From an uncultured Bacillota bacterium (GTDB lineage: Bacteria; Bacillota_I; Bacilli_A; RF39; UBA660): 53,819 nucleotides of DNA. The translations under genes were made by a program, and so were the position numbers. Location of the stretch: contig CAMUYN010000001.1 of assembly GCA_947165005.1 (NCBI GenBank), positions 67,963-121,781 on the forward strand, read 5' to 3'. Under the pieces are notes generated by a model. The model ran no database searches. It worked only from the letters and a program-made list of their open reading frames with translations, and was not told where the DNA came from. Shown here one piece after another: positions 2-25,083 of the stretch. How positions within the stretch are numbered: the stretch's first letter is position 1; every line of letters begins with the position of its first letter.

Positions 2-328
2 AAAGTAAAAGGAACAATGCATTGTTATTCAGGAAGCTTAGAAATGGCTAAAGAATTCATAAAACTAGGTTTTAAAATAGGTATAGATGGACCAATTACA
101 TACAAAAATAATGTAAAAGGCGTATCTGTAGTAGAAGGAATACCTATAGAAAGTATATTACTAGAAACAGATAGTCCGTATTTATCACCAGAACCAAATA
201 GAGGACTCCAAAATAGTCCATTAAACTTAATATATATTGCAGAAAAGATAGCAGATATTAAGGGAATATCTACTGAAGAAGTAATTAGTAAAACTACTGA
301 AAATGCTAAGGAGTTATTTAATATATGA
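2..328 (+). CDS. tatD: TatD-family metal-dependent hydrolase/DNase, C-terminal part (5' end lies upstream of the window)
   Basis: The frame is open from the window edge. Translation ..GTMHCYSGSLEMAKEF...LLETDSPYLSPEP fits the TatD HC(F/Y)SG and ETD(S/A)PYL motifs. Stop overlaps the rsmA start (ATGA). Confidence 0.8.
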   Translation, partial: KVKGTMHCYSGSLEMAKEFIKLGFKIGIDGPITYKNNVKGVSVVEGIPIESILLETDSPYLSPEPNRGLQNSPLNLIYIAEKIADIKGISTEEVISKTTENAKELFNI

Positions 329-15925: not shown

Positions 15926-15974
15926 TTGTTTTAAGGCTTGTAATTTGGTATAATTATTATTGGAGCGTGATAAG

Positions 15975-18470
15975 ATGAGCATATTTAAAAGATTATTTGA
16001 TTATCAATATAAAGAAATGAAAAAATTTACTGCGTTAGCAGATCAAATAGAATCTAAAAAAGAAGAATATGAAAAATTAAGTGATACAGAACTACAAGAA
16101 AAAACTGAAGAATTTAAGAAGGCATTAGAGAAAGGTAAAACACTAGATGATATATTAGTAGATGCTTATGCTACTGCAAGAGAAGCTGCTAAAAGAGTTA
16201 TTGGAGAATATCCTTTTTACGTACAGTTATTAGGCGCTATAGCCATTCATTATGGAAATATAGCAGAGATGAAAACTGGTGAAGGTAAAACATTAACATC
16301 TGTTATGCCAGCATATTTAAATGCATTAACTGGTAAGGGTGTTCATATTGTTACAGTTAACGAATATCTAGCATCAAGAGATGCTAACTGGATGGGTCAA
16401 ATATTTAAATTCTTAGGTTTAACAGTTGGTATTAATGGAAGAGATTTATCTCCAGAGGAAAAGAAAGAAGCGTATAATTCAGATATTTTATATTCTACTA
16501 ACAATGAAATTGGTTTTGACTACTTAAGAGATAACATGGTAGTTAGAAAAGAAGAAAGAGTACAAAGAGGATTAAACTTTGCTATTGTCGATGAAGTAGA
16601 CTCAGTACTTATTGATGAAGCTAGAACACCACTTATTATTTCTGGTGGATCTATGCATACATCTAATCAATATATAGATGCACAAAGATTTGTAGAAAAA
16701 TTAAAAGAAAATGAAGATTTCAATATAGATGAAAAAACTCAAAGTATTAGTTTAACTGATGAGGGAAGTAAAAAATGCGAATCATTTTATCATATTGATA
16801 ATATGTATGATGTTAAATATTCTGCATTAGTACATCATGTTAATCAAGCATTAAGAGCTAACTTTATAATGCACAATGAAGTAGATTACATTGTACAAAA
16901 CGGTGAAGTAGTAATAGTAGACCAATTTACTGGACGTTTAATGCATGGAAGACAATTTTCTGAAGGACTTCATCAAGCATTAGAAGCAAAAGAAAGAGTT
17001 CAAATTAATGAAGAAACAAAGACTCTTGCTACTATTACATTCCAAAATTTATTTAGAATGTATAATAAACTTGCTGGTATGACTGGTACTGCTAAAACTG
17101 AAGAGGAAGAATTTAGAGATATTTATAACATGTATGTTATAGAAATACCTACTAATAAACCAGTAATAAGAGAAGATATGGCAGATTTAATATATGCTAC
17201 TAAGAAAGATAAATATGCTGCTATTATTAATGAAATTAAAGAGAGACATGCAACAGGACAACCAATACTAGTTGGTACAATTGCAGTTGAAACTTCTGAA
17301 TTAATTAGTAATATGCTTACTAAGGAACATATTAAACACGAAGTATTAAATGCTAAGAACCATGAAAGAGAAGCAGAAATAATAGCAAAAGCCGGAGAAA
17401 AAGGTTCAGTAACAATAGCGACTAACATGGCTGGACGTGGAACAGATATTAAACTAGGGGAAGGTGTTAAAGAACTTGGTGGATTATGTGTTATAGGTAC
17501 TGAAAGACATGAATCAAGACGTATAGATAATCAGTTGAGAGGTCGTTCTGGAAGACAAGGCGATCCAGGATATTCCCAATTCTTTGTATCATTTGAAGAT
17601 GATTTAATGGTTAGATTTGGTACTGATAGATTTAAAGAATTAATGCAATCTGCAGGGCTTGGAACAACTGTTACTTTAAGAAGTAAGACAATGACTAGAA
17701 ATGTTGAATCAGCTCAAAAAAAGGTTGAAGGAAACAACTATGATATAAGAAAAAACTTATTACAATATGATGATGTAATGGGTAAACAAAGAGAAATAAT
17801 GTATGCAAGAAGAAATGAAATTCTTGATAGGGAATCTATTCATGATACTATTATAAAATTAATAAAAGAACATATTGATGAAATAGTAACAGGACATACA
17901 ATATATCAAAAAGATTTAACAGAACAAGACTGTTCAGAAATCTGTGAATATATGAATGAAAATCTATTATCTAAGTCATTTATAAAAGTATCAGAAATAA
18001 TAAATGAACCAGTAGAAAAAGTAATTAAATATATAACAGATGTAGTTATAACTGAATATAATAATAAAATAAGTGAATTACCAGAAGAAATAATTAATGA
18101 TTTCGAAAAAGTAATAGCACTTAGAGTTATAGATACTCACTGGATGGAACATATAAATACTATGGATCATCTAAAAGAAGGAATTGGTCTTAGAAGTTAT
18201 GCTCAAGCGGATCCTTTAGTAGCGTATACTAAAGAAGGATTTGATTTATTTGATCAAATGCTATCGGTTATTAATAAAGAAACAACTATTTATTTATTAA
18301 AAGCAGAAATTAAACAAAACTTAGAAAGAAAGCAAGTTGAAAAGCCAACTGGGGACAATAGTTCTGATAAAACCTCTACTAGAACTCCAAGAAAAGTCAA
18401 AAAAGTTGGTAGAAATGACCCATGTCCATGTGGCTCAGGACGCAAATATAAACAATGTTGTGGTAAATAA
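15975..18470 (+). CDS. secA: Preprotein translocase ATPase SecA with C-terminal SEC-C zinc motif
   Basis: MKTGEGKTL Walker A, DEVDSVLIDEARTPLIISG, TNMAGRGTDI. Ends GRNDPCPCGSGRKYKQCCGK*. RBS ggagcg supports the ATG at 15975. Confidence 0.95.
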   Translation: MSIFKRLFDYQYKEMKKFTALADQIESKKEEYEKLSDTELQEKTEEFKKALEKGKTLDDILVDAYATAREAAKRVIGEYPFYVQLLGAIAIHYGNIAEMKTGEGKTLTSVMPAYLNALTGKGVHIVTVNEYLASRDANWMGQIFKFLGLTVGINGRDLSPEEKKEAYNSDILYSTNNEIGFDYLRDNMVVRKEERVQRGLNFAIVDEVDSVLIDEARTPLIISGGSMHTSNQYIDAQRFVEKLKENEDFNIDEKTQSISLTDEGSKKCESFYHIDNMYDVKYSALVHHVNQALRANFIMHNEVDYIVQNGEVVIVDQFTGRLMHGRQFSEGLHQALEAKERVQINEETKTLATITFQNLFRMYNKLAGMTGTAKTEEEEFRDIYNMYVIEIPTNKPVIREDMADLIYATKKDKYAAIINEIKERHATGQPILVGTIAVETSELISNMLTKEHIKHEVLNAKNHEREAEIIAKAGEKGSVTIATNMAGRGTDIKLGEGVKELGGLCVIGTERHESRRIDNQLRGRSGRQGDPGYSQFFVSFEDDLMVRFGTDRFKELMQSAGLGTTVTLRSKTMTRNVESAQKKVEGNNYDIRKNLLQYDDVMGKQREIMYARRNEILDRESIHDTIIKLIKEHIDEIVTGHTIYQKDLTEQDCSEICEYMNENLLSKSFIKVSEIINEPVEKVIKYITDVVITEYNNKISELPEEIINDFEKVIALRVIDTHWMEHINTMDHLKEGIGLRSYAQADPLVAYTKEGFDLFDQMLSVINKETTIYLLKAEIKQNLERKQVEKPTGDNSSDKTSTRTPRKVKKVGRNDPCPCGSGRKYKQCCGK

Positions 18471-18471
18471 G

Positions 18472-18509
18472 CCCGCAAACCCGCATAAAATAAGGGATTG
18501 CGGGTTTTT
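18472..18509 (+). terminator. secA intrinsic terminator
   Basis: cccgcaa(18472-18478)/ttgcggg(18498-18504), or alternatively aaacccgc/gcgggttt, followed by ttttt. Confidence 0.8.
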
Positions 18510-18553
18510 CTATGATTACAATATTTAGGTAAAAACTGACGTGTTCACTGTCC

Positions 18554-18612
18554 TAGATAAGTTTTAGATAAGTTATCAAAATCTCACAAACCCTTATAAA
18601 ATAAGGCTAAAA
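18554..18612 (+). repeat. Module A, left (truncated) copy: tandem 11-mers plus terminator remnant
   Basis: tagataagtt-t-tagataagtt (18554-18574), then atctcacaaacccttataaaataagg, which matches agctcgcaaacccgcataaaataagg of the full copy at 21971. Confidence 0.8.
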
Positions 18613-18647
18613 CATATGTTGAGACATTAATTTCAAATTAAATACAA

Positions 18648-18668
18648 AACTTATCTAAAAATTATCTA
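18648..18668 (-). repeat. Module A 11-mer pair in inverted orientation
   Basis: aacttatctaaaaattatcta equals the reverse complement of 21801-21822 apart from a 1-nt deletion. Confidence 0.8.
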
Positions 18669-18749
18669 AATTGTAATTTATTACCTAAAAGTAGTAATAT
18701 CAAAATTAATGACAAAGATTTATGGTATAATTTATATAGAAGAAAAGCG

Positions 18750-20657
18750 GTGATATTCTTGGAAAAAAGCATTCTTTTAAAAGATAATAAAGAACTAATG
18801 AAGTATTGGGACTATGAGAAAAATAAAGATTTAAATTTAGATAAGCTAACACTTGGAAGCAGTAAAATTGCATGGTGGAAATGTGATAAAGGCCATTCGT
18901 ATGATGCAAAAATAAAAAGGAAAAATTATGAAAAAATAATATGCCCCATTTGTTCTAATCATAGAGTACTAAAAGGATATAATGATTTAGCGACAACTAA
19001 TCCTGAATTATTAAAGGAATGGGACTTTACCAAAAATACTATTTCGCCATATGAGATAACAGCTGGTGCGGAAAAAATGATATGGTGGATTTGTCCTAAA
19101 GAGCATTCATACCAATCATATGCTTTTAACCGTAAAAGAGGAGTTGGATGTCCAATTTGTGATGGTAAGAAAGTATTAATTGGATATAATGATTTAGCAA
19201 CAACAAATCCTAAAATTGTAAAAGAATGGGACTATGAAAAAAATGGAAATCTTAAACCAACGGACATTACAGAAGGAAGCGCTATAAATGTTTGGTGGAA
19301 ATGTGATAAAGGCCATTCGTATGATGCAAGAGTGAAAGATAGAAAACGAGGATTAAATTGTCCATTCTGTTCAAATAAAAAAGTATTAGTCGGTTTTAAT
19401 GATTTATATACATATTGTATTAATAATCATCTTGAAGAAATAATAGAAGAATTTGATAATGATAAAAACAAATTTTCAATGAAAGACGTTACAGCAGGTA
19501 GTGATAAAGAAACATGGTGGAAATGTCCAAGGGGGCATTCATATCAGTCTAGTCCATCCAGAAGAGTTATGAGAGGATCTGGCTGTGGGATTTGTAGTCA
19601 TAATATTCTACTAAAAGGTGTAAATGATTTACTAACCACACACCCTGAAATAGCAAAAGAATGGGATTATAAAAAGAATAAAGTTGGTCCAGATGAAGTA
19701 ATGGCCGGAAGCAATATAGATAAATACTGGTTTATTTGTCCAAAAGGCCATAGTTACCATACCACTGTCTTAGGTAGAAAAAGAGGAACTAACTGTCCAC
19801 AGTGTAACATAGAAAAGCATACATCAATTCCAGAAAGATCAATTTATTATTACATGAAAAAATATTTTGTTGATGTAGTTGATAGTTATCATAGTAAAAA
19901 AATCGGAAGAAAAGAAATTGATATATTTTTGCCAGCATTTAACTTTGGGATAGAGTATGATGGTAGAGCTTGGCATAAAAATTATAAAAGAGATATAGAA
20001 AAAGATAACCTTTGTTTAAAAAATGATATTACGTTATTTAGAGTAAGGGAAATAGGCTGCTTCGAATATGATAGTAGTTCAATAAAAAAATATATAAATC
20101 CATATGATATAAAAGAATTAAATGAAGCAATTAAATCTATTTTTGATTATATAAATAAAAAATATAAACAAAACATTAGTGTAGATATAGATATTGAAAG
20201 AGATAAAATCAAAATTCTTGAATTAATGAACTTATCCGAAAAAGAAAATTCAATTGCTAAGTATTGTCCAAGTATTAAAAAATATTGGGACTCAACTAAA
20301 AATGGATTGATTACTCCTGAACAAATTTCACACGGAAGTATGAAAAAAGTATTTCTAAAATGTGAAAAAGGCCATGAGTGGGATAAAATTGTAAGTAATA
20401 TTAGAAAAGAAATAAAATGTCCATTTTGTTTTGGAAGAAAAGTACTACCTGGATTTAACGATTTGGCAACTACTCATCCTGAAATATCAAAAGAATGGAA
20501 TTATGAAAAGAATGGAGATCTTAAACCAACAGACATTAAAGCAGGAAGTAATAAAAATGTATGGTGGAAGTGTGAAAGAGGTCATGAATGGCAAGCTGTT
20601 ATAAATATAAGAACTAACGGATATAGAAAATGTTCAATTTGTTCAAAAATAAATTAA
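18750..20657 (+). CDS. Seven-fold zinc-ribbon repeat protein with embedded PD-(D/E)xK (Vsr/DUF559-like) nuclease core
   Basis: Seven modules W(W/F).C..GH.(Y/W)...(8-10 aa)...CP.C preceded by (L)KEWDYEKN. Between modules 5 and 6: EIDIFLPAFNFGIEYDGRAWH...D...LFRVRE. GTG start at 18750 is uncertain. Extended -10 tggtataat at 18723-18731. Confidence 0.7.
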   Translation: MIFLEKSILLKDNKELMKYWDYEKNKDLNLDKLTLGSSKIAWWKCDKGHSYDAKIKRKNYEKIICPICSNHRVLKGYNDLATTNPELLKEWDFTKNTISPYEITAGAEKMIWWICPKEHSYQSYAFNRKRGVGCPICDGKKVLIGYNDLATTNPKIVKEWDYEKNGNLKPTDITEGSAINVWWKCDKGHSYDARVKDRKRGLNCPFCSNKKVLVGFNDLYTYCINNHLEEIIEEFDNDKNKFSMKDVTAGSDKETWWKCPRGHSYQSSPSRRVMRGSGCGICSHNILLKGVNDLLTTHPEIAKEWDYKKNKVGPDEVMAGSNIDKYWFICPKGHSYHTTVLGRKRGTNCPQCNIEKHTSIPERSIYYYMKKYFVDVVDSYHSKKIGRKEIDIFLPAFNFGIEYDGRAWHKNYKRDIEKDNLCLKNDITLFRVREIGCFEYDSSSIKKYINPYDIKELNEAIKSIFDYINKKYKQNISVDIDIERDKIKILELMNLSEKENSIAKYCPSIKKYWDSTKNGLITPEQISHGSMKKVFLKCEKGHEWDKIVSNIRKEIKCPFCFGRKVLPGFNDLATTHPEISKEWNYEKNGDLKPTDIKAGSNKNVWWKCERGHEWQAVINIRTNGYRKCSICSKIN

Positions 20658-20671
20658 AGCGAGGAAAAAAT

Positions 20672-21778
20672 ATGAATCAGAAAAAAATATTGAAAGCAAT
20701 AAAATGGATTCTAATTGTAGGATTAATTATTCTAATATTTTATGAAATGTTTATAAAGAGAATTATAAGTAAATCGATTACTTTTCTTGAGTTGTCTCAT
20801 TATGAAAATAGAAGTGACATATTAGCTTACATTAGTATAATAGTAACATCACTAATTAGTTATAATATTTATAATTTGTCTAAAAGAATTAATCAGCAAA
20901 ATTGCATGGAAAAAAATAGGCACAAATATGAATCTATTTGCGCAGTATATGATTATTTAAATGAAATAATTTTATATACAAAAAAAATTGTTTTTAATGA
21001 TAAAGAAGACTATCATAACTTAGATTATAATAAAGATTTTATGAAGCATGTATATAATATAAGCAATGAAGTGTTAGATGAAAATGATATTGAATTGATT
21101 AGGAAAATTGATCAGACTATTAGAAACTATTTAAACAGAAATAAGAATAGTAATACCGAAAAATTAGTTATAAAATGGGTTTATAAAAATTTGTTTGATA
21201 TGAATATGAAAATTGAAAAAATAGAAGAACTGAACAATATAGTAGATACTGATTTGTTATTAAATCCACAAGTAGTTCTTATATTATCAAAACTTAGAAA
21301 AGAACTTAATTATGATTATAATAAGATAATCAACTATGGTGAAATGATTTTGCAAATAAAAAATAAAAAGGGTCAAGTTATTATTTATAAAAAATATAAT
21401 AATGAATGCTATGTCGATAATGGCATTGGAGTATTAGAAATATATGAGCCGATTTTTTATTCAAATAACAAATTTTATCGAAATGGTGGAATGGTTTATA
21501 AAGGAAATGTAAAAAAATATTTACCACATGGTGATGGAATATATTATTATTACAAATCAGATGAGACAAAAAAGATTTATGTTAATAGTGATGATTTGAT
21601 TGATAAAACAGCGGTAAGAATAAAAAGAATACTTCAAAAAGAGGATATACCTGAAAGAACTAACTTAGTAGTAAAAGGGCAGTTTAAAAACGGAAAAATA
21701 GTAAAGGGATTAATTGAATTTGAGGAAAAAGATTTGGGCAAAATTGAAGTTGCTGAAAACGACTATAAGAAATTGTAA
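20672..21778 (+). CDS. N-terminally membrane-anchored hypothetical protein with possible MORN-like repeats at the C-terminus
   Basis: RBS gaggaa 5-7 nt before the ATG at 20672. TM helix ILKAIKWILIVGLIILIFY. C-terminal YKGNVKKYLPHGDGIYYY and VKGQFKNGKIVKG. Confidence 0.55.
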   Translation: MNQKKILKAIKWILIVGLIILIFYEMFIKRIISKSITFLELSHYENRSDILAYISIIVTSLISYNIYNLSKRINQQNCMEKNRHKYESICAVYDYLNEIILYTKKIVFNDKEDYHNLDYNKDFMKHVYNISNEVLDENDIELIRKIDQTIRNYLNRNKNSNTEKLVIKWVYKNLFDMNMKIEKIEELNNIVDTDLLLNPQVVLILSKLRKELNYDYNKIINYGEMILQIKNKKGQVIIYKKYNNECYVDNGIGVLEIYEPIFYSNNKFYRNGGMVYKGNVKKYLPHGDGIYYYYKSDETKKIYVNSDDLIDKTAVRIKRILQKEDIPERTNLVVKGQFKNGKIVKGLIEFEEKDLGKIEVAENDYKKL

Positions 21779-21830
21779 TTAATTAAAATTTAATTTATTT
21801 TAGATAAGTTTTTAGATAAGTTCTGCTAGG

Positions 21831-21920
21831 TTTGCCGAGTGCTACGGAGTGCTCCCAAGTGCAACCAAGTGCCGAATTAACGAGCCAAGTGCTCCCAAAA
21901 GCTCCCAAAATCCCCAATAC
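21831..21920 (+). repeat. Degenerate decamer tandem repeat (consensus GCTCCCAAGT, about 8 units)
   Basis: gctacggagt gctcccaagt gcaaccaagt gccgaattaa cgagccaagt gctcccaaaa gctcccaaaa tccccaatac. 42 of 80 nt are G+C in an otherwise AT-rich window. Confidence 0.8.
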
Positions 21921-21926
21921 AAAAGG

Positions 21927-21971
21927 CCATGTGGCAGTGGTAAAAAATATAAACAATGTTGTGGTAAATAA
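21927..21971 (+). pseudogene. Start-less copy of the secA SEC-C tail (PCGSGKKYKQCCGK*)
   Basis: ccatgtggcagtggtaaaaaatataaacaatgttgtggtaaataa versus secA 18426-18470. No ATG or credible RBS in frame back to the TAG at 21813. Confidence 0.85.
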
Positions 21972-22019
21972 GCTCGCAAACCCGCATAAAATAAGGGAAG
22001 ACGCGAGCTTTTCTTTTTT
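21971..22019 (+). terminator. Hairpin terminator, paralog of the secA terminator
   Basis: agctcgc(21971-21977)...gcgagct(22003-22009) then ttttctttttt. The loop aaacccgcataaaataaggg is identical to the secA terminator. Confidence 0.75.
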
Positions 22020-22053
22020 GTAAAAATGGTATAAATTGTAAAAATTACAGCAC

Positions 22054-22100
22054 TATCTACACTTTATCTACACTTAACAACTTTTGAAAAATCTGATAAA
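22054..22100 (+). repeat. Module B, left (truncated) copy
   Basis: Perfect tandem tatctacactt x2 (22054-22075). The next ~25 nt (acttttgaaaaatctgataaat) resemble 22727-22750 of the right copy. Confidence 0.7.
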
Positions 22101-22192
22101 TACCTAATAATATAAGGAAAAATCAGCACTTGTTTACTTCGAGAGTGGTATTGGTAAATAATATGATATAATTAATACAGGAGTTGATCCAA

Positions 22193-22696
22193 ATGAATTA
22201 CGTTATTAGAAAAAAAGAACGAAAAGATTGCGCTGATGTTGCACACGTTGTAACGGTTGCTTGGAACGAAACATATAGAGGAATAGTACCTGATGAATTT
22301 TTGGACAACTTATATACTAACGAAGAAGAAAGGGCCAAGAACTCTTTTAGCAATTTTAATGAAAAAGAAAATCATCAATTTGTTTTAGAAGTTGATGATA
22401 AAGTAGTAGGATTTATAAATGTTGGTTCAAGTGATGAAACAGATTATGAAAATTGTGGTGAAATTCATGCGGTATATATTATTAATGGATACAAAGGACA
22501 TGGGTATGGTAAAAAATTAATTGATGCAGGAATTCAAGAATTAAAGTCAATGAATTTTGACAAAATGGTTATTGGTTGTTTGGATGGAAATCCATCAAAT
22601 GAATTTTATAAACATCTTGGTGGAAAGTTTATAAAAACAAGAATTTTTGAAAAATTACAGTTGCCAGAAAATGTTTATTACTTTGAAAAAATATAA
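22193..22696 (+). CDS. GNAT-family N-acetyltransferase
   Basis: Motif A IHAVYIINGYKGHGYGKKLIDAG. RBS caggag supports the ATG at 22193. Extended -10 tgatataat upstream. Confidence 0.85.
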   Translation: MNYVIRKKERKDCADVAHVVTVAWNETYRGIVPDEFLDNLYTNEEERAKNSFSNFNEKENHQFVLEVDDKVVGFINVGSSDETDYENCGEIHAVYIINGYKGHGYGKKLIDAGIQELKSMNFDKMVIGCLDGNPSNEFYKHLGGKFIKTRIFEKLQLPENVYYFEKI

Positions 22697-22699
22697 AAC

Positions 22700-22906
22700 T
22701 ATCTACGCTTTTATCTACGTTTTAGCAGAGTTTTGCAAAATATGATTTAATGTGAATTAACGGAAAACGGCGTGGTTTAAAGGGCTTTAGATGATATCTA
22801 AAATCTCAGAATTACTAAACATCGCATCCATGTGGCAGTGGTAAAAAGTATAAAAATTGTTGTGGAAGAAATAAGACTTGTAAAGCCCTTAAATTAAGGG
22901 CTTTTT
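22700..22906 (+). repeat. Module B, right (full) copy
   Basis: tatctacgctt-t-tatctacgttt, tagcagag, spacer containing gaattaacg (also present in module A), SEC-C tail copy, hairpin aaagccctt/aagggcttt. Confidence 0.8.
22828..22874 (+). pseudogene. Decayed copy of the secA SEC-C tail (PCGSGKKYKNCCG..), stop lost
   Basis: ccatgtggcagtggtaaaaagtataaaaattgttgtggaagaaataag. No start codon upstream in frame. Confidence 0.8.
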
Positions 22907-22931
22907 ATTATAACATTCACAAGACTATTTT

Positions 22932-23050
22932 TTACATACGTTATTACATACGTTGTGAGAACGTATATAAAACGTATGTACATTGCTTTTTGAAATCTAA
23001 AAACCAATATTTTCAGAGGTTACAGAATATATGTACCACTGCCACTGTGG
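22932..23050 (+). repeat. Module C, left (decayed) copy containing a 50-nt palindrome
   Basis: ttacatacgtt-a-ttacatacgtt gtgag aacgtatataa-aacgtatgtac (22932-22981) forms a near-perfect hairpin. taccactgccactgtgg (23034-23050) resembles an inverted SEC-C fragment. Confidence 0.7.
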
Positions 23051-23116
23051 TATGGGTAAGTATTGAAAAAAAATAAGAATAATGATAAAATAATTTAAAT
23101 AAAGGAATGAATAATA

Positions 23117-23650
23117 ATGAATATAATTTGTAAAATAACGGATAATGATATAGGAGAAAATTACATCGAAATTAATAATCCCAAAACAAGATTAGGTGCA
23201 AGAGGAATTGTTATTAGAGATGATGGAAAAATTGCAATATTTAATAAAACTAATAAAAACGAATATAAGCTTCCAGGCGGAGGAATCGAAAATGATGAAA
23301 CACCAGAAGAAGCATTTAAAAGAGAAGTTTTAGAAGAAACCGGTTGCATTGTTGAAATTATAGAAGAATTAGGTATTACCGAGGAGTATAAATGCCAATC
23401 TAATTTTAAACAAATTTCAAATGTGTTTTATGGAAAAGTAATAGAAGATACAAAACAATTACATATTACTCAAAAAGAAAAAGATGAGGGTGCTGAATTA
23501 TTATGGGAAACACCTCAAAAAGCATTGAAATTAATAACTGAATGTTATGATAAATTGGTAAAGTCTGATTATGAATCAGTTTATTCAACTAAATTTGTGG
23601 TTTTAAGAGATAGAATAATATTAGAATACTATATTAATAAATATCAATAA
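23117..23650 (+). CDS. NUDIX hydrolase
   Basis: Nudix box GGGIENDETPEEAFKREVLEETG. Confidence 0.88.
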   Translation: MNIICKITDNDIGENYIEINNPKTRLGARGIVIRDDGKIAIFNKTNKNEYKLPGGGIENDETPEEAFKREVLEETGCIVEIIEELGITEEYKCQSNFKQISNVFYGKVIEDTKQLHITQKEKDEGAELLWETPQKALKLITECYDKLVKSDYESVYSTKFVVLRDRIILEYYINKYQ

Positions 23651-23661
23651 TATATTTAATT

Positions 23662-23863
23662 TCACATACGTTATTACATACGTTCTGCTAGTAGTGCTGA
23701 GTGAATTTGAGTGCTACTAAGTGTAAAAATGTTCGAAATAATGGGATAAAATGCTCGGCAGTGTAGTAGAATATACCCAGAATAAAAGCCATGTAGCAGT
23801 GGCAAGAAATATAAGCAATGTTGTGGAAAATAAGTTAGCAGAACGTATAAAACAAGATAAAAT
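23662..23863 (+). repeat. Module C, right (full) copy
   Basis: tcacatacgtt-a-ttacatacgtt, ctgctag, AGTG-periodic tract, SEC-C tail copy. A 13-bp perfect inverted repeat atacgttctgcta(23678-23690)/tagcagaacgtat(23836-23848) encloses it. Confidence 0.8.
23789..23833 (+). pseudogene. Most diverged copy of the secA SEC-C tail (PCSSGKKYKQCCGK*)
   Basis: ccatgtagcagtggcaagaaatataagcaatgttgtggaaaataa. In-frame TAA two codons upstream. Confidence 0.8.
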
Positions 23864-23886
23864 AAATGCTTTAAATGAATTTTAAA

Positions 23887-23918
23887 GGAACAAATATAGA
23901 AAATTTGTTCCTTTTTTT
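23887..23918 (+). terminator. Intrinsic terminator closing the islet
   Basis: ggaacaaat(23887-23895)/atttgttcc(23903-23911) followed by ttttttt. Confidence 0.7.
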
Positions 23919-24104
23919 GCATAATTAAGAAGTGATTGTATTAAAACAAAAGGAGAGTATAACATGAAAATAATAGTTGGTGTGATATAGAAGAAGTCTT
24001 CAATGATATGGATGATAAATTAAGACATTTAAATTTTATAAAACAACCTATAAAATATATTAAAGAAAATAAAATAGGTACATTAGATATAATCAATACC
24101 ATAT

Positions 24105-24131
24105 AAAAAAACTCACTTAAGTGAGTTTTTT
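24105..24131. terminator. Bidirectional hairpin terminator (A-run/actcac-ttaa-gtgagt/T-run)
   Basis: aaaaaactcacttaagtgagtttttt. Overlaps the stop of the minus-strand CaCA gene. Confidence 0.7.
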
Positions 24132-25083
24132 ATATTATGAATATTAAGAAATAATATATAACGAATGCTAGTAGCATTAAGAATCCTTCGAATCTTGATA
24201 TTTGTTTTTTTGTTTTAGATACTATGAATAGGAATAATGCAGAACCAACTAACATTATTAAATCAATATATGAAAAACTTTGTGGAGTAATAGTACCAAA
24301 TATTGCAACAGGTATTCCTAATACAATACAGATATTAAATATATTACTTCCGATTATATTCCCTACTAATATGTCTTGTTCATCCTTTTTAGATGATACT
24401 ATAGTAGTCACTAGTTCTGGTAAAGAAGTACCAAATGCTATTATAGTAAGAGATATTATTCTTTCACTTAATCCAAGTGTTTTTGCAATAGCAGCTGCAT
24501 TATCTACAACAAAATCACTACCAATAATTATCCCTGCTAATCCTAAACCAACGAATATAAATGATTTTATAAAACCAAATTTTGGTTTTTCTTCTTGATT
24601 TTGTTCTTTATTTTGTTTAGCTAAAGCTATTAGATAGTAAACAAATACTGAGAAGAATAATAGAATTACAATTGCATCAGATCTAGTTATTTGATTTAAT
24701 AAACCATTTCCTAGTTTAACATCTAACATAATAACTGTAAGTAATGAAGAAATTAAAAGTGCAATTGGCAATTCTTTTTTTACAGTATTATCTTTTATTT
24801 TTATTGGCTTGATCATAGCACCAATTCCAATTATTAATAAAATGTTTAAAATACAACTACCAATAACATTTCCAAGTACCATGTCAGTGCTTCCAGAAGC
24901 TAAAGCTTGCATCGATACAGCAAATTCTGGAGCAGAAGTACCAAATGCTACAATTGTTAATCCTATTAACATTTTTGGTACTTTGAAGTTTTGTGCTGTT
25001 GATGAAGCACCATCAACAAATATATCTGCACCTTTTATTAATAAAACGAAACCAAATACTAACAATACAATATTTACTATCAT
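24130..25083 (-). CDS. CaCA-family Na+/Ca2+ (cation/Ca2+) exchanger, YrbG-like
   Basis: 317 aa, about 10 TM helices. Two alpha-repeats GTSAPEFAVS and GTSLPELVTT. Confidence 0.88.
   Translation of the reverse strand: MIVNIVLLVFGFVLLIKGADIFVDGASSTAQNFKVPKMLIGLTIVAFGTSAPEFAVSMQALASGSTDMVLGNVIGSCILNILLIIGIGAMIKPIKIKDNTVKKELPIALLISSLLTVIMLDVKLGNGLLNQITRSDAIVILLFFSVFVYYLIALAKQNKEQNQEEKPKFGFIKSFIFVGLGLAGIIIGSDFVVDNAAAIAKTLGLSERIISLTIIAFGTSLPELVTTIVSSKKDEQDILVGNIIGSNIFNICIVLGIPVAIFGTITPQSFSYIDLIMLVGSALFLFIVSKTKKQISRFEGFLMLLAFVIYYFLIFII

Follow-up and report, generated by a model that had tools for sequence, protein, structure and literature searches.

What the tandem repeats downstream of secA in an uncultured Bacillota bacterium (lineage RF39; UBA660) delimit, and which protein they serve, is the question raised by this locus. 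The repeats, built from the word TAGATAAGTT, bracket a two-gene unit, named Module A, within a stretch of 53,819 nucleotides (nt) (assembly GCA_947165005.1, contig CAMUYN010000001.1, positions 67,963 to 121,781 of the forward strand; referred to in full as the window). A preliminary description of the window depicted the unit as a 3.2-kb segment with terminal inverted repeats, and likened its paired words to either transposase ends or the arm sites of a recombinase. The analysis presented here leads to the view that Module A is quite probably an integrated cassette devoid of an integrase, the tandem words representing arm sites of a phage-type integrase and the 3' end, or tail, of secA its bacterial attachment site (attB). 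This view is founded on the anatomy of the repeats and its conservation and geometry across genomes, on the prophages with integrases to which the repeats are linked, and on a cassette that encodes no integrase.

Repeats of the secA tail

The secA gene (15960-18470, +), which ends in ...CPCGSGRKYKQCCGK, encodes a protein with the Pfam SecA domains and a SEC-C motif (Pfam; residues 818-836). Its 3' coding tail (copy 1; 18426..18470, +; PCGSGRKYKQCCGK and stop codon) is followed by a terminator hairpin with ATAAAATAAGG in its loop (18471..18510, +), and tail and terminator together recur as a direct repeat, 18426-18497 being 89% identical to 21927-21998, with a tail-to-tail period around Module A of 3,501 bp. 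The second copy of the tail (21927..21971, +; RPCGSGKKYKQCCGK and stop codon) is detached from secA and lies in a 40-aa open reading frame (ORF; 21849-21971) in which the Pfam SEC-C motif is again recognized. With two more copies, one of them degenerate and with its stop codon lost (copy 3; 22828-22865, +) and the other at 23789-23832 (copy 4; +), the tail is present four times in the same direction from the end of secA downstream. This region consists of three tandem modules (A, B, and C), each with its own tandem word in both arms and each laid out in the order tail, terminator, tandem word pair, gene or genes, the same word pair, a further 100-130 nt or so, and the next tail.

The boundaries of Module A are the direct repeats of the secA tail and not the 11-mers; copy 1 is its attL core, while copy 2 is both its attR core and the attL core of Module B. 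Direct repetition of the target core at the two ends (attL and attR) is the arrangement that characterizes an element inserted by a tyrosine integrase. The preliminary description raised the prospect of target duplications flanking 18648-21822; no short duplication was found there, and the flanks are instead the secA tail repeats of approximately 72 bp.

Tandem words in both arms

The exact word TAGATAAGTT occurs six times in the window, and five of these copies are at the borders of the unit, starting at 18554 and 18565 (+), 18648 (-), and 21801 and 21813 (+); a further border copy at 18659 (-) carries one mismatch. The pairs at 18554-18574 and 21801-21822, and the inverted copy at 18648-18668, were hence confirmed at the positions originally reported. 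When one mismatch is allowed, the single 10-mer shows no enrichment across the window (22 matches vs. 16.7 expected), whereas the clustering of exact copies does stand out. The left pair, TAGATAAGTT-T-TAGATAAGTT (18554..18574, +), has a period of 11 bp and lies 110 nt past the tail motif, on what would be the P' arm, and the right pair, TAGATAAGTT-TT-TAGATAAGTT (21801..21822, +), has a period of 12 bp and lies 144 nt ahead of the next tail motif, on the putative P arm. The words are thus distinct from the core, repeated, and held at fixed positions in both arms, as arm-type sites are, and both pairs are proposed to be arm-type sites of an integrase. Arm-type sites flank the core in such an arrangement in the lambda-, Tn916-, and Tn1549-type systems. 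A box reading TTTAGGTAA upstream of the left pair (18524..18532, +) may represent a third, degenerate arm site; it forms part of an inverted repeat (I2), has a mirrored copy, TTACCTAAA, at 18681-18689, and is kept as ACAATTTTTAGGTAA in five of the seven cassette left arms of the left-arm alignment.

Between the right pair and the core, the P-arm spacer (21823..21926, +; beginning CTGCTAGgtttgccgagtgct) shows homology to other cassettes' right arms and to that of a prophage (L089, described below), and an alignment of the right arms of Module A, Module C, other cassettes, and this prophage gave a mean column identity of 71%. The pentamer AGTGC, of which there are 32 copies in the whole window, is phased at 10 bp, one helical turn, in this spacer (21838, 21848, 21858, 21868, and 21888), and its array provides candidate sites for an accessory or bending protein akin to Xis. 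Other elements have a phased word of their own at the same place, for example AGGGC/AGCCCCCAAA in prophage L089 and ATACTATA in the second family of modules introduced below.

A module of the Xer/dif type (integrative mobile element exploiting Xer, IMEX; plasmid dif, pdif) was also considered. Such a module is defined by a 28-bp dif-like site composed of two inverted 11-bp arms around a 6-bp spacer, and it was rejected, the 10-mers here being arranged head-to-tail with a gap of 1-2 nt.

secA-tail arrays in related species and metagenomes

Use of the C-terminal half of SecA as query identified 80 loci in uncultured gut Bacilli, relatives of 'Clostridium sp. CAG:433'. For 45 of these related species, 3 kb or more of sequence past secA was available, and 26 of the 45 had one to five extra copies of the tail; the ORFs of these arrays are nearly all in the direction of secA. 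The contigs of 34 of the 80 species end no more than 2.5 kb after secA; it is probably because of the repeated tails, together with variation between strains, that the assemblies break there, and the arrays would be under-counted as a result. An identical tandem 7-mer was present in both arms at fixed offsets in 17 of 55 modules, compared to 4.8% for mismatched arm pairs. Two families of modules were recognized. Family 1, to which Modules A, B, and C all conform in geometry, is built on TAGATA(AG/CC/CG)TT, with the left pair at +105..112 (11-bp period) and the right pair at -141..146 (12-bp period). Family 2, with TTTGTCCACA, TTGTGCACA, TTTGTTTGCA, and other words, has its left pair at +98..108 and its right pair at -166..171, both with an 11-bp period.

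The closest relatives, L001 and L002 (90 and 92% SecA identity, respectively), have no array, and ordinary genes follow directly after secA; the gap between secA and the gene for a Na/Ca exchanger is 1.4 kb in L002 vs. 5.7 kb in the window. In L002, SecA has a different end (CWCGSGKKFKNCHGKQ; L002:10920-10975) that lacks the core sequence CCATGTGG...KYKQCCGK, and this species may be a poor target for secA-tail elements. A literature search found nothing relevant on secA as a site at which phages or integrative and conjugative elements (ICEs) integrate.

A scan of metagenomes for TAGATAAGTT pairs returned at least 120 loci; the counts that follow in this section apply among the matches listed. 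A pair was at a fixed distance from a copy of the secA tail in 101 of 160 cases, the remainder being at contig ends, beside degenerate tails, or in unrelated DNA of high GC content. All 49 pairs with a tail within 200 nt upstream were of the 21-nt form with the 11-bp period, and they were 109-114 nt from the tail with two outliers (99 and 102 nt). Conversely, all 52 pairs with a tail within 250 nt downstream were of the 22-nt form with the 12-bp period, 50 of them 134-162 nt from the tail and the other two at 79 and 206 nt. Complete TAGATAAGTT cassettes numbered 25, with 0.42-2.5 kb between their pairs, and none of the 25 encodes an integrase; their cargo includes GNAT, S-adenosylmethionine (SAM)-methyltransferase, ABC transporter, APH-type phosphotransferase, metallophosphoesterase, MazE, AAA_21, and DUF4379 proteins. 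The preliminary description proposed looking for the unit in other contexts: the arms do recur, and with many different cargoes, whereas matches to the exact unit were confined to the same arrangement in the same strain.

Some of the metagenomic loci are mini-cassettes with approximately 420-440 nt between the TAGATAAGTT pairs (L222:1724-2436, L239:1114-1826, L156, L197, L214, and L249). These encode at most one ORF of 92-107 aa, and amount to little more than an attachment site, nearly devoid of cargo. Another locus, L191, was considered as a possible circular cassette and rejected, its ends showing no overlap.

Integrase-bearing prophages at the same site

A Pfam census of 105 array ORFs identified domains of integrases, viz. 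Phage_int_SAM_3 (n = 9), Arm-DNA-bind_4 (n = 7), and Phage_integrase (n = 6). An intact integrase of 416 aa from L063, which represents the second family, has an Arm-DNA-bind_4 domain above the Pfam cutoff, and its use as a tblastn query located intact integrase genes starting approximately 240 nt past secA in L003, L005, L031, L042, and L066. Upstream of the intact integrase genes, the element's own word is found as (+), (+)(+), and then (-)(-); this layout of direct and then inverted copies is the same as that of the left end of Module A. Many integrase copies inside the arrays are split. Those of family 2 (L035, L037, L061, L023, L080, L027, and L014) are very often split into two ORFs near residue 170 or truncated, which suggests recurrent inactivation or, possibly, a programmed frameshift.

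The link between the TAGATA words and an integrase was provided by viral sequences. When IMG/VR was scanned for pairs of TAGATAMSTT, contigs were found in which the pair is beside a secA tail and beside a divergent integrase gene on the opposite strand. One contig (3300028833_003330; 40,114 bp) holds both ends of a single prophage of approximately 37 kb that is bounded by secA tails and encodes Erf, an exonuclease, a replisome organizer, tail proteins, a holin, an endolysin, the integrase, and a CI repressor. Its left end (L098) comprises the secA tail and terminator, TAGATACCTT-T-TAGATACCTT, the integrase gene, and the gene for the CI-type repressor, and its right end (L089) comprises TAGATACCTT-TT-TAGATACCTT, a spacer of approximately 120 nt, and CCATGTGG with the rest of the tail; the layout at L089:12103 is the same as that of the right pair of Module A. 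The geometry of this prophage is accordingly an 11-bp-spaced pair approximately 110 nt past one tail and a 12-bp-spaced pair approximately 144 nt ahead of the next. Beside the right arm of the same prophage (L089:5621-10704), R, M, and S genes make up an entire restriction-modification system of type I, a moron-like cargo.

Two further prophages, L113 and L118, carry the exact 21-mer TAGATAAGTT-T-TAGATAAGTT between the secA tail and a gene for a 387-aa integrase. The integrases fall into subgroups that are approximately 50% identical to one another and that match the words ending in AAGTT, ACCTT, and ACGTT, and a fourth subgroup (L147) adjoins TAGAACCATT-T-TAGAACCATT and a degenerate tail. Among solved structures, the integrase profile is closest to the Int protein of Tn1549 (residues 64-359), leaving an extra N-terminal segment of approximately 60 aa. 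The similarity of this N-terminus to Arm-DNA-bind_4 is just below the Pfam cutoff in two subgroups, and that of the AAGTT type gave no Arm-DNA-bind match in Pfam; for this reason, its assignment as an arm-binding domain is only suggestive. Of the two functions initially entertained for the paired words, that of recombinase arm sites is thereby favored, given their fixed offsets around a duplicated core, their presence in an integrase-bearing prophage, and the match between words and integrase subgroups, and that of transposase ends is not retained.

The point of exchange

Homology of the right arms to secA begins sharply at (C)CATGTGG, and the right-arm copies begin at CCATGTGG. The terminator hairpin that follows secA is nearly identical in the second module of the L014 array and missing from the unoccupied sites of L001 and L002, and it is for these reasons assigned to the downstream cassette, i.e., the P' side; the motif of its loop is located at +20..49, just past the stop codon, in 127 of 281 tails. 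In addition, the codon preceding KYK is Arg in 23 of the 45 tails that have a TAGATAAGTT left arm downstream of them, compared to 7 of the 50 that have a TAGATAAGTT right arm upstream. Based on the sharp start of homology, the linkage of the terminator, and this codon bias, the crossover is probably near the 5' end of the tail, close to CCATGTGG. On that basis, Module A would be the source of the tail that secA has today.

The left end of Module A

Between the left pair and the promoter of Module A are two features that the preliminary description had pointed out. An inverted pair, AACTTATCTA-A-AATTATCTA (18648..18668, -; 11-bp period), is located 73 nt past the left pair, to which (18554-18574) it is 95% complementary. 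Inverted copies at exactly +73/+84 nt from the left pair were found in 10 of 55 distinct TAGATA-type left arms, associated with several different cargoes, and in none of the prophages examined; the inverted pair is a trait of one sub-lineage of left arms. A 3.2-kb unit bounded by terminal inverted repeats at 18648 and 21822 is difficult to reconcile with this distribution and with the 3,501-bp period of the tails, and that delimitation was abandoned. Module A and L014 module 2 have left arms that are homologous as far as the promoter and cargo that differs, being a glycoside hydrolase in L014, and direct and inverted copies covary between the two: TAGATAAGTT with inverted AACTTATCTA in the window vs. 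TAGATACGTT with inverted AACGTATCTA in L014.

The second feature, between the direct and inverted pairs, is another copy of the post-stop/terminator-loop motif (CAAACCCTTATAAAATAAGG; 18580..18606, +), previously described as a remnant of the secA terminator. Its likeness to the sequence immediately after the secA stop codon holds (81-85% identity), and it is kept in L014 module 2. It is no isolated relic: 36 of 281 tails have ATAAA(A/T)AAGG a second time at +140..179, the background being approximately 0.3% per 10 nt. Because both the inverted copies and this motif recur at fixed positions, the left end of Module A is best viewed as a conserved variant of the arm rather than the end of a transposon. 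As single-stranded DNA, the strand 18512-18700 folds with z = -5.4. The 73-nt spacer was also considered as the scar of a deleted integrase gene; this was rejected, as in prophages the region past the integrase gene lacks inverted copies. An Rfam search of 18300-24200 (E-value mode) returned only weak chance matches, and no known RNA accounts for the arms.

Proposed mechanism and alternative explanations

Given these features, tyrosine-integrase elements, both temperate phages and small islands, are proposed to integrate into the last 45 bp or so of secA, each incoming element bringing a replacement tail such that SecA would stay intact. Module A would span the 3,501 bp from the crossover in tail copy 1 to tail copy 2, and in its circular form the pairs would bracket the core at about -144 (P arm) and +110 (P' arm). 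The N-terminal domain of the integrase would bind the TAGATAAGTT pairs, with its catalytic domains acting on the core near CCATGTGG. Excision, re-integration, or co-mobilization of Module A would occur only with an integrase supplied in trans or in cis, a possible source being a TAGATAAGTT-type prophage such as L113 or L118, and repeated integration at the regenerated tail would generate the array A-B-C. The recurrence of the same arms around many cargoes lends indirect support to mobilization by the integrase of a related element. On this model, Module A may be mobile at the present day.

A number of observations count against this proposal. A tblastn search of the 53.8-kb window with both integrase families detected no integrase, and a cognate helper in this host is putative. 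The exact Module A has been found in one arrangement only, and movement of Module A itself is presumed. The match between integrases and words extends to just four classes, the AAGTT-type integrase is the one whose N-terminus gave no Arm-DNA-bind match, the association of the Arg/Lys codon that places the crossover is only partial, and one TAGATAAGTT right arm (L191) has 11-bp spacing. The single arrangement and the integrase-free window would both be expected if Module A were a fossil, i.e., the remnant of a decayed prophage or island with inert arm sites and a cassette now fixed in place, as would the frequent splitting and truncation of integrase genes in the arrays, which indicates that decay is common at this locus. 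Such a remnant would share the origin proposed here and lack only present mobility. However, none of the four direct copies of the word deviates from the exact sequence, and among the matches listed all 101 tail-adjacent pairs preserve the geometry, while 25 complete cassettes with unrelated, co-oriented, promoter-bearing cargo also retain both arms. Homologous arms surround different cargo in the window and L014, and random deletion would rarely spare both arms yet remove all phage genes; a fossil is accordingly considered unlikely.

The remaining alternatives dispense with an integrase. The 70-250 bp that tails and arms share on each side of a cassette could serve RecA-dependent recombination or transformation, with the 11-mers being nothing but conserved sequence, and the partial codon association would be consistent with variable points of crossover. 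Exchange through homology, however, leaves unexplained why the same word is present in both arms and a different one in the neighboring modules, as well as the strict 11-bp vs. 12-bp spacing, the covariation of direct and inverted copies, and the one-to-one match with integrase subgroups, and it is judged very unlikely. A role for the tandem words as operators, bound by a transcription factor such as a phage repressor or a protein of the Xis/Cox type that controls cassette expression, would suit the location of the left pair and the inverted pair, immediately upstream of the promoter of the cassette, and that of the words upstream of the integrase gene in integrase-bearing islands. Nevertheless, the right pair is downstream of the cargo genes, the left pair in prophages is past the 3' end of the integrase gene and not in a promoter, and after circularization the core would have a pair on each side at spacings usual for arm sites. 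As the sole function of the words, regulation is therefore highly improbable; a dual role in integrase binding and autoregulation is possible and would be compatible with an integrase-less cassette. Finally, a transposase that binds two-site ends could in principle move 18648-21822, as 18648-18668 and the reverse complement of 21801-21822 agree at 21 of 22 positions. Yet Pfam searches of the window proteins and array ORFs revealed no transposase in or near the unit, 18648 and 21822 are not flanked by a short target duplication, 45 of the 55 left arms and all prophages lack the inverted copy, and the pairs are at fixed distances from secA tails and not at varied loci, leaving a transposon scarcely credible.

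Relation to known mobile elements

An integrase-less cassette of this kind has its closest counterpart in the cis-mobilizable elements (CIMEs), which retain attL and attR and are devoid of integration genes, examples being those related to ICESt1/ICESt3 in Streptococcus thermophilus (PMC5704250). With both arms intact and cargo genes that lack recombinase domains, integration and transfer genes being absent, Module A fits the definition of a CIME, and the array fits tandem accretion. Features in common with CIMEs and accretion (PMC5704250) are the presence of tandem elements at the 3' end of a conserved gene, the regeneration of the target by each integration, and the coexistence of integrases with the same target but distant sequences. 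In contrast to CIMEs, the target here is secA, and the donors include temperate phages rather than ICEs or integrative and mobilizable elements. Moreover, the cassettes are of very small size (0.4-3.5 kb) and occur in large numbers, share one orientation, and have promoters of their own, and they resemble a propagated pool of cassettes rather than occasional products of decay.

The heterobivalent integrases of lambda, Tn916, and Tn1549 act on tandem, helically phased direct repeats located approximately 100-150 bp on either side of the core, as are found here; the integrases of this site are closest to Tn1549 Int, and the extra N-terminal Arm-DNA-bind_4 domain scores above cutoff in the second family. 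Unlike those systems, the P and P' pairs here have the same orientation, their binding is predicted from sequence, and the site word has diversified into at least four classes around a shared core. Accumulation of integrase elements at one gene end, with partial copies of the target, degenerated elements, and niche or defense cargo, is also known for the tycheposons and tRNA-linked island arrays of Prochlorococcus (bioRxiv 10.1101/2020.12.28.424599) and for the ssrA-linked islands of Dehalococcoides (PMC3146451). Elements of these groups usually encode an integrase of their own, in many cases together with replication genes, and target a tRNA or transfer-messenger RNA gene, whereas it is a protein-coding tail that is duplicated here and most units of the TAGATA family are cargo-only.

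Arrays of small, co-oriented units of one or two genes, with GNAT, methyltransferase, toxin-antitoxin, and phosphotransferase cargo, are likewise a property of integrons. An integron cassette array was nonetheless rejected: in the window, no intI-like gene is present close to secA, the units are bounded by secA tails with two-armed sites, and neither an adjacent attI or Pc nor a general attC hairpin was found, the hairpin-prone left end being limited to one sub-lineage of left arms. In place of these, every cassette brings a promoter of its own and a complete two-armed att site, and the recombinase would be a phage-type integrase encoded elsewhere. What is likely new at this locus is the combination of the CIME/accretion logic with secA as target, phage integrases as the probable engines, and a pool of integron-like mini-cassettes.

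The number of these units, their small size, their own promoters, and their varied cargo suggest that they are propagated as cassettes. By extension, and as a tentative proposal about which considerable doubt is warranted, the secA-tail arrays might constitute an integron-like cassette system based on phage attachment sites. In such a system, promoter-bearing units with a two-armed attP, divided into specificity classes by their arm words (at least four of the TAGATA type and several more in family 2), would employ the integrases of phages and islands as helpers and be shuffled and stacked across gut Bacilli, possibly being carried along with helper prophages. The end of secA, an essential gene, is a landing pad in widespread uncultured gut Bacilli with small genomes, and more than half of the relatives examined stack cassettes there. 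If phage integrases do mobilize these units in trans, the site would offer small genomes a cheap route for the exchange of accessory genes, among them those for acetyltransferases, methyltransferases, phosphotransferases, toxin-antitoxin systems, and candidate defense proteins. The arm words matched to integrase subgroups also form a natural series for studying the evolution of arm-site specificity.

Cargo of Module A and the neighboring modules

The likely promoter of Module A is an extended -10 element read from the sequence, TGgTATAAT (18723..18731, +), which is kept as ATGGTATAAT in L014 module 2; a generic promoter scan was uninformative, its scores in the AT-rich DNA of the window not exceeding those of shuffled sequences. 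The first cargo gene (18750..20657, +) encodes a 635-aa zinc-ribbon protein in which Pfam recognizes DUF4379 (E = 4e-114, seven stretches); its seven DUF4379 units are treble-clef zinc ribbons, and its central domain contains the invariant residues E..EIDI..GIEYDG..H..D..K. By this motif the protein may be endonuclease-like; its central residues are reminiscent of endonucleases of the Vsr/DUF559 type, a resemblance that no library or structure comparison confirmed. A word-indexed search for homologs of the central domain found only two proteins, and an AlphaFold model based on three sequences was poor (predicted local distance difference test score, pLDDT, of 55.8), Foldseek returning nothing for it at E <= 0.001. 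The second cargo gene (20672..21778, +) encodes a 368-aa membrane protein with an N-terminal hydrophobic segment and of no known family. It would be 382 aa long if started at an upstream ATG (20630); public assemblies call the 368-aa form, which is on record only in the same arrangement of the same strain, and an exact look-up did not find the 382-aa form on record. Searches of PADLOC, NCBIfam, and PDB sequences with the cargo genes returned nothing. Among the metagenomic matches listed, proteins with DUF4379 that are approximately 45% identical to that of Module A are encoded in the cassettes of L148, L188, L195, and L203, and no relative of the second cargo gene was found in these four.

Module B (22054..22724, +) is a GNAT acetyltransferase cassette with the word TATCTACAC/G. 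Its left pair is a tandem TATCTACACTT (22054-22075, +; 11-bp period), the acetyltransferase gene is located at 22184-22696 (+), and its right pair, TATCTACG(C/T)TT (22700-22724, +; 12-bp period), is followed by the degenerate tail copy 3. When IMG/VR was scanned for phage partners of the words of Modules B and C, all matches were at chance level, and none was beside a secA tail and an integrase gene. Module C (22934..23832, +), a NUDIX hydrolase cassette with the word ACATACGTT, ends in tail copy 4. Its left word, ACATACGTTATTACATACGTT (22934-22954, +), is directly followed by inverted copies (22962-22981), the NUDIX gene extends from 23117 to 23650 (+), and the right 21-mer (23664-23684, +) is identical to the left and continues as CTGCTAG...; the right arms of Modules C and A can be aligned. 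In a different assembly of the same strain (L250:1350-3799), secA is called as two genes of 667 and 108 aa, a split that is probably a sequencing frameshift and not biological.

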